Positions 45,272 to 63,570 of a DNA stretch of 64,000 bases are shown here, piece after piece. How positions within the stretch are numbered: the stretch's first letter is position 1; every line of letters begins with the position of its first letter. Source of the stretch: an uncultured bacterium (GTDB lineage: Bacteria > Hydrothermota > UBA3072). The notes beneath the pieces are model-generated. The model saw only the letters and a program-made list of their open reading frames with translations. It made no database searches and had not been told where the DNA came from. Position numbers and translations under genes: made by a program. The stretch spans positions 9,609 to 73,608 of the forward strand of contig CAYQMH010000003.1 of the NCBI GenBank assembly GCA_964418485.1. Reading direction: 5' to 3'.

Positions 45272-46180
45272 TTATTTCTTGTTCCAGGCAAAGCCGACAT
45301 ATAGACCTATCCCCGAATCGTAATAAGGATAGTTTATAATGCGTGTATACCTTGTACCTATTATGTAGCTGAAGTCATAGTGTCTGAAGAGGATTACTCC
45401 GCCGGCTGCCAGAAATGTTAAACCGTCTCTTCTAAAAGAAGGCCCAAAGCCAAAACCGGGTCCGCCTCCTATGAAAAAGGAATGGTTTGCCCTTGCATCA
45501 CTAATATAGTAAAAAGGAAGATATATTTGAGCTCCTCTATCGATATGCTGTGTTCTTATGAAAATTTCTGTCGCGACGTGAGGAGAAAGGAAGTACATGT
45601 AGCTTAGATCCAGGTCGAAAACTTTCTGCACGGAACCTGCGTCATCCGGAGTTTTGTAAGAGCTATCTCCAAGAGCATAAAAATATCCGGCCCTAAAGGA
45701 AAGGAAAGAACTGACGTTCTTTCTCCAGTTTATTATTTTGTATTCGGGTAACTCGTATATTTGTTTTTTCTCCGCATAGGCTTCGGCAAAATCTTCAAGA
45801 AGTTCTTCGATATTATTAAGAGAGTAAACAGATTTTTGTGTCGAATAATTGATTATTCCGGTCTCGGTAGAAGTTTCCTTTATCTCAATTAAAGTTTTAC
45901 CTCCAGGCATTTTGCTTAAGACTCCGTATAAGACTTTATCCGCGTTTGCTTTCCTACCTTCTTCCATCGCGCAGAAAGGTGTAGAGCAAAACTTGTAGCT
46001 TTCCATAACGATAGTATTCTTCAGCCTTCCGCGAACTTCATTTTTAAAGAAATTGGAATATACGTTGAGGTCGAGAGGTTCCGTCTCCAAATCGACACTT
46101 CCGAAGTTTAATATGAGAAGTCTTTCCTGTCCAAATACGCATAAAGAAAAGATAAATAAAAAAATCAAAATCTTTTTCAC
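45272..46180 (-). CDS. Exported protein: CsgG/TolB-N-like domain plus small C-terminal beta-barrel
   Basis: GTG 46180 after GGAGGT; signal peptide; CAMEEGRKANADKVLYG; alternating beta-strands ending YVGFAW. Confidence 0.55.
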   Translation of the reverse strand: MKKILIFLFIFSLCVFGQERLLILNFGSVDLETEPLDLNVYSNFFKNEVRGRLKNTIVMESYKFCSTPFCAMEEGRKANADKVLYGVLSKMPGGKTLIEIKETSTETGIINYSTQKSVYSLNNIEELLEDFAEAYAEKKQIYELPEYKIINWRKNVSSFLSFRAGYFYALGDSSYKTPDDAGSVQKVFDLDLSYMYFLSPHVATEIFIRTQHIDRGAQIYLPFYYISDARANHSFFIGGGPGFGFGPSFRRDGLTFLAAGGVILFRHYDFSYIIGTRYTRIINYPYYDSGIGLYVGFAWNKK

Positions 46181-46271
46181 GGGATACCTCCTATTTTTCG
46201 AAATTAATATGTTTTTTTTATTTGTCAATCGAGTTTGCCTACCCCCCATTTTTTTTATTAATTAAGTCGGC

Positions 46272-46435
46272 GAGAATCAGAGGGATTGCCGTCCAGGAAA
46301 GCGTCTCGGAGGGTGAGCGGGCATGGTCTTTTGAAATGCTTGCATTTCAAAAGGAGCGAACCCGAGAGCCGAGTGGCAATTTCCTCGCAGGGGAAATTGA
46401 CCACGTCTTTCTCGGACGGTAATCCCTCTCTTTCT
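46272..46435 (+). ncRNA. Unassigned structured element (ncRNA candidate; a MITE-like element is the alternative)
   Basis: 16-bp closing stem 46279-46294/46414-46429, two internal hairpins (46328-46353, 46374-46403); the non-WC stem pairs I saw are G-U on the + strand; GC-rich island within AT-rich intergenic DNA. Confidence 0.55.
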
Positions 46436-46580
46436 ACGAATATTCGTAAATAGCTTATCCCAGCATGAAATTTCCTATAAGTATTGCGATAACTAACTTT
46501 GGATGATTCGGCGTAAAAATTTTGGGGGAGGCAGTCAATCGAGTATCTTGACATCTATAAATCTTCTTTTATTATATTTT

Positions 46581-47627
46581 ATGATTTTAATTCTATTCTC
46601 AGTGCCTGTAATTCTACTGCATGGACATCGGTCGGACGCTATTGATACACTGGCAACAAGAGTCTGGCTCCCTTACGAGGGAAAACTTCTTGAACACCCT
46701 ACAGTCTTTACCGAAATACTTGATGAAAAGTACAATGGATATGTATGTGGTAAAGATACAGCAGGAAATTCAATTAGCTTTAATAGAGAGAGCATGTTAC
46801 CGGCGCAAGAAGGAGAAAACCTTATATTTGACTTCTCATATTACGCCGGTACTCCTTCTGTAATTGGAGACGGAAAGCTTTTGCCTGTGTGTGAGAGGTA
46901 TAGAAAAACTTATATCGAAAACCTTAAAAACAATAGTTATTCAAAGGAGCTTGCTTCTTTTGTAAAAAAAGTTCTTGTTTCTGTTTATGGAGATAACTGG
47001 GTAGAAAAAGAACACGCAAAAGTGAATTTTGTTGCTCATTGTATGGGTGGCATTGTACTTAGGTATGCGATAAAATTTCTAAATATACCTGGAACAGAAG
47101 TGCGCTTTAAGGATGTGACAGGGAGAGTTTGCTATGTGGCTACACCGAGCAACGGTTTTCATAACCAGTTTTTCGGTGTCGAAGCTCTTGACGATGATAA
47201 AAAGTGGCAAAGATTCGGAGAAGATTTGGAAACGAATATTCCTTCATCTATGTTAAAAATAGGTAGAGATATTGAATTCTGTTCCGAAAATAACGAAAGA
47301 GGGACATTTTGCGGCTTGATTGGGAATGACAATCTGGGAGTCGAAAGTATTAATATTTATGGTACTCGTAATCATTTTCGCATTAAACTCTTCTTTGGCT
47401 TAAGTTTTGCTTTAGGCCCGGACGATGGTGATGTATACTTCGAGGACACTTATATTGAAGGAGTTAAAAATATTCCGGTTTATGCGAGTCATTCATATTC
47501 TCTTCCGCATAAAGCCAAAAGTTATTTTGTGTTTTCCGTTATGGATGAAGGCGCTACAGGAGAAGATGCTCTTACTTCAAATAGCGAAGTTAAGAAATTA
47601 ATTAAAGATTTTATACTTACGAAATAA
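46581..47627 (+). CDS. Secreted alpha/beta-hydrolase (lipase/PGAP1-like) with Cys at the nucleophile position
   Basis: PVILLHG oxyanion motif, VAHCMGG, VATPSNG, DDGDV. ATG 46581 lies 5 nt after TTGACA-N16-TATTAT. Confidence 0.75.
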   Translation: MILILFSVPVILLHGHRSDAIDTLATRVWLPYEGKLLEHPTVFTEILDEKYNGYVCGKDTAGNSISFNRESMLPAQEGENLIFDFSYYAGTPSVIGDGKLLPVCERYRKTYIENLKNNSYSKELASFVKKVLVSVYGDNWVEKEHAKVNFVAHCMGGIVLRYAIKFLNIPGTEVRFKDVTGRVCYVATPSNGFHNQFFGVEALDDDKKWQRFGEDLETNIPSSMLKIGRDIEFCSENNERGTFCGLIGNDNLGVESINIYGTRNHFRIKLFFGLSFALGPDDGDVYFEDTYIEGVKNIPVYASHSYSLPHKAKSYFVFSVMDEGATGEDALTSNSEVKKLIKDFILTK

Positions 47628-58603: not shown

Positions 58604-60103
58604 TTATCTGTTTGCATTTCTGAATCTTAGGGAAAGTAATGTATCATTTTCCTTAACTGTAATCTTTACATTGTGTTGATTAAGAATTAATCTGATAAGA
58701 GGTATATCTAAATATTTTATATCTGAGTTTCCTGTTAACGGATTATCAAATTGAAAGATAGACACGTTCTCCAGAGCCGAGAAATCATCTATTAAAGACT
58801 TAAAACCTCTAAAATTAAGATATATATACCTATTTTTTTTCTCTAATTCGACCCATGCATCTTTCATTTTTTCCTTCATGCCAATTGTAAATAACTGCTT
58901 AAGTGATTTAATTAACCACTTATAATTACCAAAGATAAAGATTTTTTTTTCTTTAATATTTAACTGGAAAGAAACGTTGTTTAAATCCGAAATTATTTTA
59001 TTTAAAACTGATTTAAGGTCTATTTTTTCGTTAACTTTAATGGTTTCTTCTGTCACTATTTCAGCAATATCCAGAAGCTTTTCTACCATGTCTTTCATTT
59101 CCAAGGATGAATTATAAATTGCTTCTGCCATCTCTTTAGCATCTTTCTGAAGGTCTTTCTTGTCTTTTAAAATATACGATATGCCCAGAATGGGGGTGAG
59201 CGGCGTTCGGAGGCGATGCGATAAGCCGGATACGAAATTGGCATTAACTTCCTGCAGATATTTTAACCTGTCAAGTTCTACCCTTTCTGTGATGTCATTA
59301 ATCTGTATAATTAAATATTCTTTTTCTATGCCGGAAGAACTTATTTCCTTGGCTTTAGACAATTCGAAGTTTAAATGTGACTCCTTACCGTTTGTACGAA
59401 TAACAGCTGCAAAATGACCTCTGTTTTTAATAACTTCGATGTTATCTAAGATCTCCTTGTAAGGTAAAACTTCTTTCAGATATTTCCCATCAGTGCCTTT
59501 TATATGGAGCATCTTTTCTGCTGTCGGGTTAGTTTTTGTGATGATGCCTGTATCATCTAAAATTATTATACCTCCAGGTAAAGAGTTTATAATGGAATTC
59601 AAAAATTCTTCTGATTTCGAAAGCCTTTCGCTAAGAAGAGTCATCTTAAGTTCGGAAGAAACCTGAGCTGCCAGTTGTTCTATTATTTCTTTGCTCCTTT
59701 CGTTGTAGTCTCCGCCGCGACTATTAATCACTTCGATTACACCAATGGTCTCTCCGTCTATAATGAGTGGTGCCGCAAGCAGAGATTCTGTACTAAAGCC
59801 CGTTTGCTTATCAAATTTATCCGCATATCCGGAGCTTTTTGGTCTGTTAACCACAAAAGACTTTCCTTCTCTGGCAGTTCTCCCGGCTATTCCTTCTCCG
59901 ATTTTTATTCTTTTCCCCTGTAGATTCTTGGCTTCAGGACCGTTGACAATCTTGAAAACAAGTTCATCTGTGTCATGATCGACGAGAAATAAAGTCGCAG
60001 CTTCACTTTGAAGTACTTCCTGCGAAAGATCGAGAATCCCTCTCAAGAGTTCATTAAGATTCTCGCTCTCAGTTATCTTTCCCCACTTCTTCTCTAATTG
60101 CAT
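58604..60103 (-). CDS. GAF-PAS-HisKA protein with degenerate ATPase domain
   Basis: GAF domain similar to that of the GGDEF protein; PAS; SHRLRTPL H-box; no recognisable N, G1 or G2 boxes. Confidence 0.78.
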   Translation of the reverse strand: MQLEKKWGKITESENLNELLRGILDLSQEVLQSEAATLFLVDHDTDELVFKIVNGPEAKNLQGKRIKIGEGIAGRTAREGKSFVVNRPKSSGYADKFDKQTGFSTESLLAAPLIIDGETIGVIEVINSRGGDYNERSKEIIEQLAAQVSSELKMTLLSERLSKSEEFLNSIINSLPGGIIILDDTGIITKTNPTAEKMLHIKGTDGKYLKEVLPYKEILDNIEVIKNRGHFAAVIRTNGKESHLNFELSKAKEISSSGIEKEYLIIQINDITERVELDRLKYLQEVNANFVSGLSHRLRTPLTPILGISYILKDKKDLQKDAKEMAEAIYNSSLEMKDMVEKLLDIAEIVTEETIKVNEKIDLKSVLNKIISDLNNVSFQLNIKEKKIFIFGNYKWLIKSLKQLFTIGMKEKMKDAWVELEKKNRYIYLNFRGFKSLIDDFSALENVSIFQFDNPLTGNSDIKYLDIPLIRLILNQHNVKITVKENDTLLSLRFRNANR

Positions 60104-60467
60104 TTTTTTCCAATAAGTGTACTACTTTATCCCACAGAAGCTCTAAATCCGGAGGTTTTGTTATAAACTCGACATCTAATTTGCCTTTAGCAATAATTTC
60201 TACATCTTCTCTTAAATGTTCATATGCTGTACAAATAATTACAGGAAACTTATAACCTCTTTCGATTAAATTCTGGAGAACTTCTAATCCATGTTTTCCT
60301 CCCATTTTAATGTCGAGTACAACAAGGTGATAATTGTTTTTACTGAGTTTCTTGGTTACTTCAAACCCATTATCCGCTGTGTCGACCTCGAAACCTTTAA
60401 GTTTAAAAAACTCTTTAAATAAATATAAAATGGAAGGAACATCATCAGCTACCAATACTTTAGCCAT
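60069..60467 (-). CDS. Single-domain response regulator
   Basis: VLVADD, VLDIKMG, ICTA, ITKP. Start ATG 60467. Confidence 0.92.
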   Translation of the reverse strand: MAKVLVADDVPSILYLFKEFFKLKGFEVDTADNGFEVTKKLSKNNYHLVVLDIKMGGKHGLEVLQNLIERGYKFPVIICTAYEHLREDVEIIAKGKLDVEFITKPPDLELLWDKVVHLLEKNAIREEVGKDN

Positions 60468-62010
60468 TTTTTCCTCCTTTTTTTGGTAGTTCAATTGTAA
60501 ATTCTGTTCCTACGCCTTCTTTACTATCAACAAAAATTCTCCCTTTATGCGCAGAAACAATTCTCTGGACGATTGAGAGCCCCAGACCTGTTCCATTTTT
60601 CTTGTTGGTTACAAAAGGCTCGAAAATTTCATCTCTTTTAGATTCAGGAATACCTAAGCCATTATCTGTTACCTTTGTTATTATATTACCGTTTTTCTCG
60701 CTCAAATTGATATCTATTTGTCCGCCTTCGTTTAATGCGTCACACGCATTGTTGATTAGATTATCGAAAACTCTCCTGAGTTTATCTTTGTCTGCTTTAA
60801 TTTCATAATTTCTTCTATCGTGTTTAAATTTGATTTTAGCTTTCTTCTCTTTTATATTTTTAGACCTTTTGAAATCCCTCGCAACTTCACTCAGAAAAGC
60901 CGCATAATCGAATTCTTCAGAATTTAACTCCTGGTCCTTTGAGAAATCGAGCATATCTCCTATTAATTCATTTATTCTATCTGTATTATTTAAAATTTCT
61001 TTTCCATATTTCTTCCCCTTCTCATCTTTAGAAGACAGTATAAGTAACTGAGCTAAACCGCTAACAGCACCGAGTGGATTTCTTAAATCGTGTGCTATTT
61101 GAAGGGTTAATTTGCCCAATCGGTTTATCCTTTCTGATCTCTCCATCTCTTTTTCCATTCTCTTTCTTTCGGTTATGTCGTTGAATATAACTATTGCACC
61201 TTGTTTGCCTTTACTTTCATTCTTGAAGTAAGCAAGGTTGATTCCCCAGTATCTGCCTTTATTCATTTTTACAAGATTCCTGTTTTCCCCTGGATTTCCA
61301 AACTCTTTAACACATTCTTTCAAAATCGGAATGATATTATCATCTGTTTTTACAAGTTCCTGTGCTTTAGGATTTATCAAACGTATAATAGCTTCCCCAT
61401 ACACGTCTTCAAAGACCGCAATTCCGGTGTTTATAGAGTTGATGACTCCCCTATAAAAATGTTGGATATCTCTTTTCTCGCGTTCCTCACTTTCTTTGAC
61501 CGTTTCAATCCTTTCCCTCATAATTTTGTTCCATAAACTGCTGATGAAAGCGGTCAAAAGCAAGAAAACGAGCTTTAATAGGAAAACCGGATCTTGAATG
61601 TTGAAACTTTCCCTTTGCTGAGTTAGCCATATGTAGATGCCGGCGCTTGCGATTGTAATTGCTAACGATGCACCTATACCCGATGAAATCGAAGCCATCA
61701 TTATGGTGAGGAAATAAAAAATATAATAATCTGAACTTATGCTTCCGGTGAAATAAAAAACAGTAGAGACGACTACAATATCAAAAAGAAATAAAGAAAA
61801 TAAGATCAACTGCTTATTTAAAAGCGATGGTTTCCATATTCGTAGAGTTATATTAAGAGCAAAATATAGAGAAGCTATTACATAAACGATGCCAATTCTG
61901 GTAACTTCTTCCGTAGCATAACCTGCAATTAAGATTACGGAAAGCAAAACAAGCCACCTGAATACTAAAAAAACATCTAAATCACTGGACTTCTTTAATT
62001 TTATCATCAT
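60460..62010 (-). CDS. Membrane sensor histidine kinase (PilS-like architecture)
   Basis: Multi-TM N-terminus; PAS-like region; AHDLRNPL, NLINNA, DNGLGI, FEPF, GTGLGL. Confidence 0.92.
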   Translation of the reverse strand: MMIKLKKSSDLDVFLVFRWLVLLSVILIAGYATEEVTRIGIVYVIASLYFALNITLRIWKPSLLNKQLILFSLFLFDIVVVSTVFYFTGSISSDYYIFYFLTIMMASISSGIGASLAITIASAGIYIWLTQQRESFNIQDPVFLLKLVFLLLTAFISSLWNKIMRERIETVKESEEREKRDIQHFYRGVINSINTGIAVFEDVYGEAIIRLINPKAQELVKTDDNIIPILKECVKEFGNPGENRNLVKMNKGRYWGINLAYFKNESKGKQGAIVIFNDITERKRMEKEMERSERINRLGKLTLQIAHDLRNPLGAVSGLAQLLILSSKDEKGKKYGKEILNNTDRINELIGDMLDFSKDQELNSEEFDYAAFLSEVARDFKRSKNIKEKKAKIKFKHDRRNYEIKADKDKLRRVFDNLINNACDALNEGGQIDINLSEKNGNIITKVTDNGLGIPESKRDEIFEPFVTNKKNGTGLGLSIVQRIVSAHKGRIFVDSKEGVGTEFTIELPKKGGKNG

Positions 62011-62196
62011 ATTTAAATTACTATAAAAGAAACATTCCAATCATTAAGATATTGATTGTCAGTCACATGGATGTGTAAATATATCTTTATATATCGCAAC
62101 TAGAATGAACAAGTGTAGAATATACTTGACAAAATATCTATTAAATATATATTGATTCAAGGTGTCGAAATGCTTTGAGGTATGTTAGGAGGTATT

Positions 62197-63570
62197 ATGG
62201 CTAATAAAGTACTTATTGTGGATGACGATGAGAAGCTTTTAAAGGTATTGAGTGAGGCGTTAGAGAAAGAAGATTTCATTGTGTCGACGGCCACAACAGC
62301 AGAAGAAGGACTGGAGAGATTCAAGGAAATTGATTTTGACGCGGTGCTGGTCGATCTTGTTCTCCCGGATATGGACGGGATAGAATTGCTCAAAACAATA
62401 AGAAATATCGATTCTGATTTTCCTGTAATAATGATAACAGGGCACGCTTCCATCGATCTTGCTGTAAAGGCAATGCGTATGGGGGCTTTTTATTTCATCG
62501 AGAAGCCCGCTTCTACAAAAGCTATATTAGAAATACTTAAAAGAGCTATAGAACAGAAAGAGCTAATATTGAGCTATCAGTCTTTGAAACGGACAGCCGA
62601 GGAGAAATTTCGTTTTTCTGGCATAATAGGAAAAAGCAAGCAAATGCAAGAAATTTTTGATTTAATCGAGCGTGTAGCTTCCGCAGAAGCGACGGTACTA
62701 ATACAGGGAGAGTCGGGTACCGGCAAAGAATTAGTCGCAAAAGCTATACATTTTAACTCTCCGAGGAAAGAAAATCGATTTGTTGCTATAAACTGTAGTG
62801 CTCTGCCCGAATCTTTGCTGGAAAGCGAGTTATTCGGATACGAGAGGGGAGCCTTCACTGGAGCTAATAAGAAAAAGAAAGGGCTTTTCGAAATTGCCCA
62901 CAAAGGCACGATTTTCCTTGACGAGATCGTTGAAACTTCGCCCGCGTTTCAGTCAAAACTTCTACGGGTATTAGAGGACAGGACTTTCTACCCGGTAGGG
63001 TCTACAGAGGAAAGAAGAGCTGATACAAGAATTCTTGCAGCCACAAATAAAAATATCGAAGATACAGTAGCAGAAGGAAAATTCAGAAAAGATCTATATT
63101 ATCGTCTCAATGTGGTCAAAGTATCTTTGCCTCCTTTGCGGGATAGAAAAATCGATATTCCATTGCTTACTCAGAATTTCTTGAAAACTTATGCTGATAA
63201 AAACCGTAAGAATATTGTGGGAGTTTCCGATGAGGCGATGGAGGTATTGATGCGTTACTCCTGGCCGGGCAATGTCCGGGAGCTTGAAAATGCTATTGAA
63301 AGAGCAGTGATTCTATGTCAGGAGCAAACTATACTTGCGGAACATTTACCTGAGAGAACAAGTAGAAGCGAAGAACTTGAACCTTCCAATATTCTTGAAT
63401 ACGAAGCGGCAAAAGATTCTTTCGAGAAAAAATACCTCAGGAACTTATTGAAGCAGACAGAGGGAAATGTTACAGACGCAGCCAGAATCGCCCAGATGAC
63501 CAGGCAGAATATTTATCTTAAATTAAAGAGGTATGAGATCAATCCCAAGATTTATTATCCCAGAGAATAA
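62197..63570 (+). CDS. Sigma54-dependent response regulator (NtrC/PilR family)
   Basis: REC domain, GESGTGKE, GAFTGA, WPGNVRELEN, C-terminal HTH; AGGAGGT RBS before ATG 62197; upstream TTGACA-N16-TATATT. Confidence 0.95.
   Translation: MANKVLIVDDDEKLLKVLSEALEKEDFIVSTATTAEEGLERFKEIDFDAVLVDLVLPDMDGIELLKTIRNIDSDFPVIMITGHASIDLAVKAMRMGAFYFIEKPASTKAILEILKRAIEQKELILSYQSLKRTAEEKFRFSGIIGKSKQMQEIFDLIERVASAEATVLIQGESGTGKELVAKAIHFNSPRKENRFVAINCSALPESLLESELFGYERGAFTGANKKKKGLFEIAHKGTIFLDEIVETSPAFQSKLLRVLEDRTFYPVGSTEERRADTRILAATNKNIEDTVAEGKFRKDLYYRLNVVKVSLPPLRDRKIDIPLLTQNFLKTYADKNRKNIVGVSDEAMEVLMRYSWPGNVRELENAIERAVILCQEQTILAEHLPERTSRSEELEPSNILEYEAAKDSFEKKYLRNLLKQTEGNVTDAARIAQMTRQNIYLKLKRYEINPKIYYPRE

Follow-up and report, generated by a model that had tools for sequence, protein, structure and literature searches.

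The segment at positions 46272–46435 of the window, the 64-kb stretch of DNA that was analysed, forms the conserved inner part, or core, of a MITE (a non-autonomous transposon) of 299 bp. MITEs are about 50–600 bp in size and carry no transposase gene, and the unit found here shows the features of this class, namely a small size, terminal inverted repeats (TIRs), a target-site duplication, dispersed copies with unrelated flanks and a precise empty site. Taken as a whole, we consider it moderately probable that we are dealing with a promoter-seeking MITE whose folded core acts as an RNA module of the plus strand. The preliminary description of this DNA had proposed a stand-alone plus-strand ncRNA, loosely of 6S size, and had named a non-autonomous mobile element as the alternative. 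It was this alternative that proved right, as the element is present in many copies and is bordered by target-site duplications.

Similarity to the closest copies does not stop at the folded part but extends from 46232–46235 through 46528–46538, and in run X17 the depth was 40–900x at 46241–46533 and 0 outside. The extent of about 160 nt given before is correct for the folded part, but the unit itself runs 44 bp further to the left and 104 bp further to the right (Table 1). It begins with TTGCCTACCCCCCATTTTTTTT and ends with AAAAATTTTGGGGGAGGCA, which together form an imperfect inverted repeat of the form 5'-(C)TGCCTACCCCCCATTTT... / ...AAAATTTTGGGGGGTTGCCAG-3', and the TIR pairing TTGCCTACCCCCCATTTT... 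with ...AAAATTTTGGGGGAGGCA is conserved across copies; the two ends can also be given as CTGCCTACCCCCC ... GGGGGGTTGCCAG. Terminal inverted repeats had already been suspected and the element does have them, but the closing stem of the fold is not one of them, the true ends being 46235 and 46533. Both ends are directly bordered by an 11-bp direct repeat, and among 16 unique full copies found elsewhere such a duplication was perfect over 11 bp in seven, had one mismatch in two and two mismatches in one. The sequence of the repeat changes from copy to copy, and by chance such a repeat would be expected at a rate of about 2e-5 per copy. The whole 299-bp unit folds into a very stable stem-loop structure.

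Table 1: Features of the element and of its insertion site (positions refer to the 64-kb window).
Feature	Positions	Strand	Remarks
Leftward -35-like hexamer TGTCAAT (ATTGACA on the minus strand)	46223–46229	-	conserved in five genomes; target context
Left target-site duplication GTCAATCGAGT	46224–46234		11 bp, exact direct repeat of the right copy
Whole MITE, type A	46235–46533	+	299 bp; similarity to other copies starts and stops there
Left TIR TTGCCTACCCCCCATTTTTTTTA	46235–46257	+	pairs with the reverse complement of 46512–46533; conserved in type A
P1 closing stem	46279–46294 with 46414–46429	+	16 bp, one G-T; found by inverted-repeat finder
P1b GGAAAG/CTTTCT	46296–46301 with 46407–46412	+	fold and covariation
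P2' hairpin (alternative)	46302–46308 with 46318–46325	+	CGUCUCG/CGGGCAUG; one-sided wobble-compatible changes only
P2 CTCGG and P2b GGGT	46305–46314	+	partner of P2 46369–46373; partner of P2b 46360–46363
P3 hairpin	46328–46353	+	perfect 12 bp; found by inverted-repeat finder
Conserved junction GAGCGAACCCGAGAGCCGAG	46354–46373	+	no variant of at least 5% among metagenome contigs
P4 hairpin, bulged A46400	46374–46403	+	fold and inverted-repeat finder
Variable 3' part with small variable hairpin	46430–46511	+	70–85% identity among type A, below the core
Right TIR AAAAATTTTGGGGGAGGCA (tip ...GGCA)	46512–46533	+	conserved in type A, duplication directly after
Right target-site duplication GTCAATCGAGT	46534–46544		11 bp, exact direct repeat of the left copy
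Host promoter of the 348-aa gene	46548–46575	+	TTGACA-16-TATTAT, 3 bp past the duplication; kept in empty sites; target context

The unit is not coding, since a long open frame is kept in only 11 of 61 copies, and no conserved reading frame was found in it. For the 98-aa ORF across the element the exact-protein look-up found none on record, and a type I toxin was rejected together with any other coding potential, as the copies do not preserve the frames and a hydrophobic peptide is missing. In type A copies, the kind present in the window, no convincing internal sigma-70-type promoter or intrinsic terminator was detected, and neither a transposase nor an autonomous partner was found in the ~620 kb of collected loci or in viral contigs. 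Both of these results speak against the reading we prefer. ORF clustering over all loci gave no recurrent neighbour protein either, what recurred being spurious element-crossing ORFs and orthologous neighbours. Integron attC sites, REP/REPIN elements and the hairpin ends of IS200/IS605 were discarded as candidates, none of them being compatible with the ends and with a duplication of 11 bp, and the resemblance to ssDNA hairpin motifs noted earlier found no support on comparison. When solo or distant ends were looked for, most of the distant matches to the end motif were ribosome-binding-site-like CCCCC-T runs; a truncated copy in L054 was also among them.

Using homologues of the downstream protein (73–83% identity), we located the orthologous loci in related genomes. 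Four syntenic loci (L085, L087, L089 and L090) have no element and one GTCAATCGAGT-type target copy each, and they share the gene order DHO dehydrogenase, NUDIX, 302-aa gene, 348-aa gene, ComEC and DnaJ. The intergenic spacer is 64–91 bp long in these four relatives. In the window it measures 398 bp, and the surplus corresponds to 299 + 11 bp. In the alignment the empty sites have the sequence ...TTTGTCAATC(N)GGTA(N)ATTGACAT..., as obtained from the window when the element and a single copy of the repeat are taken out. The empty-site genomes CAZSEX and CAZGHN carry the element elsewhere, and one metagenome contig skips 46231–46570.

As described before, the two genes flanking the element are divergent and the downstream one has its own promoter, which is close to consensus (Table 1). 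Both neighbouring genes point away from the element and read-through therefore cannot supply a transcript of the core. A riboswitch or another cis-regulator in a 5' UTR was rejected, as the element is located upstream of the -35 boxes of both neighbours. The 302-aa and 348-aa genes diverge from a back-to-back pair of -35-like hexamers, TGTCAAT-N7-ATTGACA, which is conserved in five genomes and looks like a compact divergent promoter or an operator. The element also misleads gene callers, with both neighbouring ORFs of the window being over-extended into the MITE. The 325-aa ORF at 45272–46249 (minus strand) has orthologues of 302–303 aa, and its first ~23 codons including the ATG at 46249 lie within the left end of the MITE; its true start is probably a GTG near 46182, behind AGGAGG. 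The 374-aa ORF at 46503–47627 (plus strand) extends over the right end of the MITE and over its own promoter, and its orthologues are 348 aa long and start with the ATG at 46581. In the 348-aa protein no Pfam domain was found.

Literature searches revealed no description of this element. The metagenome depth over 46263–46415 is 10–40x the flank depth, with many different adjoining sequences. Using the 20-mer 46354–46373 as search key, we identified 28 true copies in MAGs among species-representative genomes, at least ten of them in one MAG and all of them in MAGs labelled WOR-3, Stahlbacteria or 'uncultured bacterium'; CAZVXD01, JAFGHJ01, CAZSEX01 and CAZGHN01 are among the carriers. The same scan of metagenome contigs gave true copies at 49 loci. 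From the copies we built a covariance model, which produced 82 strong matches in 618 kb of collected sequence and one match in the 64-kb window. Altogether, WOR-3/Stahlbacteria-type genomes and metagenomes of sediment yielded more than 80 copies, all with differing flanks. No copy was found in viral contigs, plasmids or phages. Four loci were judged to be chance matches of the 20-mer: L059:516-535 and L064:244-263 belong to a GC-rich sequence that resembles a group II intron in its 5' part (GTGTGCCCAGCATGG...GTGAAAGTCCCC), and L056 and L072 lie inside GC-rich coding DNA.

The window copy is 99.7% identical to the one in L081 over 294 bp and the right flanks of the two are unrelated, showing that the element has moved recently. 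Such near-identical copies at different sites, the many copies at contig ends, as seen for young repeats, and the existence of chimeric or recombinant copies (for example L066, L023 and L032) would all be expected if the same MITE carried a functionless core, amplified in a recent burst and homogenized by gene conversion, with the hairpins being nothing else than inherited palindromes. L066 has the left flank of L007 on one side of the element and the right flank of L005 on the other, so that either two copies have recombined or the assembly is chimeric at the repeat. The structure of the core and its conservation, described in the following, argue against a functionless core.

As RNA of the plus strand, 46272–46435 reaches a minimum free energy of -82.5 kcal/mol compared to -53.2 ± 4.6 kcal/mol for dinucleotide shuffles (z -6.3, 0/200), and the values for the minus strand are -73.8 and z -7.2. 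The fold is multibranched and has a size of ~135–165 nt, with a conserved junction surrounded by the helices P1/P1b, P3 and P4 and by P2/P2b, to which P2' is an alternative. All pairings listed in the preliminary description are present in the sequence, and its nested structure model is backed by the covariation among 60 copies. The GC-richness was seen correctly as well, with a local GC content of 0.45–0.49 against 0.30–0.40 in the surroundings. From the proposed continuation of the closing stem, GGAAAGCG/CGTCTTTC, the GGAAAG/CTTTCT part does pair but the remainder does not. Of the two central stems, GGGT/ACCC (P2b) found support by covariation in two divergent copies; CTCGG/CCGAG (P2) is invariant, apart from its last pair, which 10 copies do not form. 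P2 and P2' exclude each other, and P2' appears to be equally compatible with the comparative data.

No Rfam family was detected for 46272–46435, neither at the gathering score nor with E values up to 10, where only junk appeared, and the same is true for 16 other loci and for L044. This includes 6S, HEARO and IS605-orfB. Across the whole 64-kb window no Rfam family reached the gathering score. The core resembles 6S RNA in its length and its long terminal stem, but unlike 6S RNA it has no central bubble, is multibranched, matches no Rfam family, and is multi-copy and mobile. A stand-alone chromosomal ncRNA gene, for example for a 6S-like RNA, would agree with the strong plus-strand fold, the covariation and the intergenic location; as four relatives lack the element at the orthologous locus and as it occurs in many copies with duplications, has no promoter or terminator of its own and matches neither 6S nor another Rfam family, we regard the original proposal as scarcely tenable.

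For the covariation analysis 60 copies were aligned by the covariance model and scored against the nested structure. In these copies 92.7% of the cells were paired, and 35 of the 47 pairs change on both sides, compared to 16.8 ± 2.0 in shuffles. The covariation score of 0.257 was not reached in any of 500 shuffles (0.130 ± 0.005), and controls with slid partners gave 0.06–0.07. The preliminary description had named covariation in homologues as a check of its RNA, and these compensated pairs are in its favour. Most of the signal comes from P1/P1b, with 12 of 13 tested pairs changing on both sides, P3, with 11 of 12 pairs covarying and compensatory variants directly visible in metagenome contigs, and P4, with 9 of 13 pairs. 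In P1b the pair G46296-U46412 varies among the copies between G-U, A-U and G-C. For P2b three of four pairs are compensated, but only in L063:2579-2711 and L073:4648-4780, two divergent copies that were found without the 20-mer key, and P2b was not part of the model to which the alignment was fitted. The invariance of the junction among the collected copies is partly due to ascertainment, because 46354–46373 had been used as the search key. In L044 the P3 and P4 stems are wholly replaced and still paired, with the joining strands being unchanged.

Conservation at orthologous loci of diverged genomes points into the same direction, as the core is 86–95% identical compared to 74–80% for the flanking coding DNA and 70–84% for the remainder of the element. 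This mosaic argues against mere youth of the copies, even if some of the identity seen at orthologous loci could also result from gene conversion between copies, a possibility that has to be counted against our preferred reading. Covarying stems, fixed junctions, the sharing of one core among subfamilies and the conservation at orthologous loci thus lead us to conclude from sequence comparison that the core is kept by selection for its fold. A functionless core is hard to reconcile with invariant junctions and compensated stems next to variable ends and a variable 3' part, with the stem replacement in L044 or with 35 of 47 compensated pairs against 16.8 ± 2.0 in shuffles, and we consider it quite improbable.

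That the core is selected does not yet tell whether it works as RNA or as DNA. The earlier claim that the wobble pairs are G-U on the plus strand was confirmed by an excess of 167 G-U over 50 A-C cells, with three pairs being mostly G-U and none mostly A-C. The excess stems from a few conserved positions, whereas in P1 and P3 G-U and A-C are equally common. The bias favours folding of the plus strand as a single strand. In the same MITE the core could also work as DNA, i.e. as a cis-acting site for transposition, be it a folded single strand or a protein-binding array, in which case propagation would be restricted to copies whose core is intact. Conservation and compensation among subfamilies are just what selection for mobility would produce, type A has no promoter or terminator, the motifs CGTCTCGG, CCGAG and CTCGG recur in both orientations and the subterminal repeats of the type C elements described below are typical of transposase binding. 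Nevertheless, selection for mobility alone does not explain why old orthologous copies are better conserved than the neighbouring coding DNA, and the core is common to families with differing terminal repeats. Elements that have inverted repeats and duplicate their target are normally mobilized in the form of double-stranded DNA, for which neither the covariation of the hairpins nor the strand bias of the G-U pairs would be expected. We therefore regard a DNA site as rather unlikely and an RNA-level role of the core as likely from these sequence patterns. In our preferred reading the core would act as a folded plus-strand transcript, serving as protein-binding or catalytic RNA module either in propagation or control of the element or in a function co-opted by the host. 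In three RNA or metatranscriptome runs, X21 and X22 among them, contigs with ~2x depth and no strand information were present, which could be DNA carry-over.

Structured modules of this kind are also known as guide or scaffold RNA of RNA-guided enzymes, such as the omega RNA of TnpB and IscB or the bridge RNA of IS110, and the core could be an orphan module of such a system. It resembles omega RNA/HEARO and bridge RNA in being a conserved module on a mobile element (~130–200 nt in these systems, ~135–165 nt here) with orphan copies; it is structured and multi-copy, and the combination of conserved junctions and variable stems is reminiscent of protein-bound scaffolds. In contrast to these RNAs, it matches neither HEARO nor IS605-orfB nor any other Rfam family, it is not accompanied by a nuclease or recombinase gene or by any recurrent neighbouring protein, and it has no guide-like variable segment, since the duplicated targets differ and no segment of the core varies to match them. 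IS200/IS605, IS607 and IS110 elements are not known to have inverted-repeat ends or a target duplication, and the element described here has inverted-repeat ends and an 11-bp duplication. Therefore we consider a guide RNA very improbable. It is conceivable, if tentative, that the core represents a new class of functional structured RNA with a four-helix junction and a 20-nt invariant joining strand, which has been spread by a MITE through WOR-3-type genomes. Such an RNA might aid the transposition of the element or its target choice at promoters bound by RNA polymerase, or it might be a ribozyme or a protein-sponge RNA that is kept by the host at conserved loci.

The insertion sites follow a clear pattern. 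In 8 of 16 unique copies TTGAC[AT] is located 2–4 bp past the right duplication (P ~2e-18 from the genomic hexamer frequency, and 2e-10 when a 10-fold intergenic enrichment is allowed for), several other copies show the mirror image GTCAAG 0–2 bp before the left duplication, and -10-like boxes follow 15–17 bp after the hexamers. The right-hand gene is on the plus strand in 9 of 9 type A copies, and the left-hand gene is on the minus strand in 20 of 23 copies of all types. Spacing and gene orientation thus place the element immediately ahead of -35 boxes, in most cases with divergent promoters on its two sides, which would be a safe place where both genes and core promoters are spared. A DDE-type transposase acting in trans would move the MITE; it would dock on a hexamer similar to TTGACA at 2–3 bp from the cut and cut the target with an 11-bp stagger. 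As the tips of the element itself read TTGNCAG, similar to the target hexamer, the end-binding specificity of the transposase may also choose the target; alternatively, the target could be chosen through tethering to promoter-bound proteins.

The ends may offer a hint to the origin of the element. The ends of IS4-family elements begin with CTG..., those of IS10 with CTGAGAGATCCCC..., the IS231 and IS4 groups make duplications of 10–13 bp, and IS231 has MITE derivatives (MIC231). The tips CTG...CCCC (CTGCCTACCCCCC) and the 11-bp stagger of our element are similar to those of this family (IS10, IS50, IS231 and IS4). The target consensus is NGCTNAGCN for IS10 and GGG(N)5CCC for IS231, and the element differs from both in being flanked by TTGACA instead. 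A derivation from the IS4 family might thus be taken as a lead only. Regarding the outcome of insertion, eukaryotic retrotransposons such as yeast Ty3, inserting at Pol III start sites, Ty1, and Tf1, inserting at promoters, are known for safe-haven insertion. Like them, the element keeps a short and constant distance to the promoter element downstream of it and spares the genes; unlike them it is a bacterial DNA transposon, and it would recognize the TTGACA motif or a factor bound to it. Targeting next to the -35 box would be a bacterial counterpart of promoter 'safe-haven' integration, and the element might also be a ready natural promoter marker in genomes of not-yet-cultured bacteria.

MITEs are usually treated as decaying remnants of transposons that are structured only by the hairpin of their ends, whereas the family described here has a complex internal fold under clear selection across subfamilies and species. 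If the core works as RNA, this would mean a new RNA class from a barely studied phylum and a non-autonomous transposon with functional cargo. Prokaryotic MITEs such as the Correia elements of Neisseria, the enterobacterial ERIC/IRU elements and QMITE2 of Coxiella give transcripts that form stable stem-loops (PMC10969869, PMC3184786). Our element is similar to them in its small size, its TIRs and direct target repeats, the missing transposase gene and the many intergenic copies near gene starts. It differs from the described MITEs in that the core is a covarying multi-helix junction with invariant joining strands and not just a hairpin formed by the ends, in one core being common to subfamilies with different ends, and in an insertion that is tied to a -35 hexamer with an 11-bp duplication. 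In contrast to Correia elements, it carries no visible promoters.

Several kinds of elements share the core. Besides type A there is type B, which had been taken for a separate family until its copies proved to be composites, in which an outer type-A-like unit with its own ends encloses a second, complete core. The join is located at the T-run after the equivalents of 46325, and one locus is triple. In the type B loci (L019, L021, L025, L029, L043, L073 and others) one or two 5' halves, consisting of the P1 arm, a local hairpin and the T-run, precede a full core, and they are always joined at the T-run. This constant join suggests template switching or recombination at these sites, which resemble terminators in combining a hairpin with a T-run. 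One such composite precedes gcvPB, the gene for glycine dehydrogenase subunit 2, by ~150–270 bp, with the same orientation as this gene and opposite to a PBP1A gene, in several diverged genomes (L003, L013, L029, L069 and also L054), and it is an old, retained insertion. Type C, which is Stahlbacteria-like, has different ends (TGTTATTAC...) and ATGTCAYAT subterminal repeats, but the same core and the same kind of 11–12-bp repeat adjoining GTCAAG/TTGAC. L044 belongs to a GC-richer lineage and has two copies 576 bp apart.

Some copies possess an optional extra hairpin of ~35–50 nt with the sequence CTCGCCCC..GAATAG..CTATTC..GGGGCAAG, which occurs at differing positions, i.e. after the GGG of P2b, in the loop of P4 or upstream of the core (L005:379-548, L007:148-317, L004:2328-2512, L012, L016 and L029:3420-3480). 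It is either a variable extension of the RNA or a tiny mobile module. Genes at 58.6–63.6 kb of the window that match L008 were identified as two-component and NtrC-type regulators and not as transposases: the region 58604–63570 encodes a GAF/histidine-kinase-like protein, a receiver domain, a sensor histidine kinase and a sigma-54-type (NtrC-like) response regulator. Similar regulator pairs adjoin copies of the element in L008, L049 and L082.
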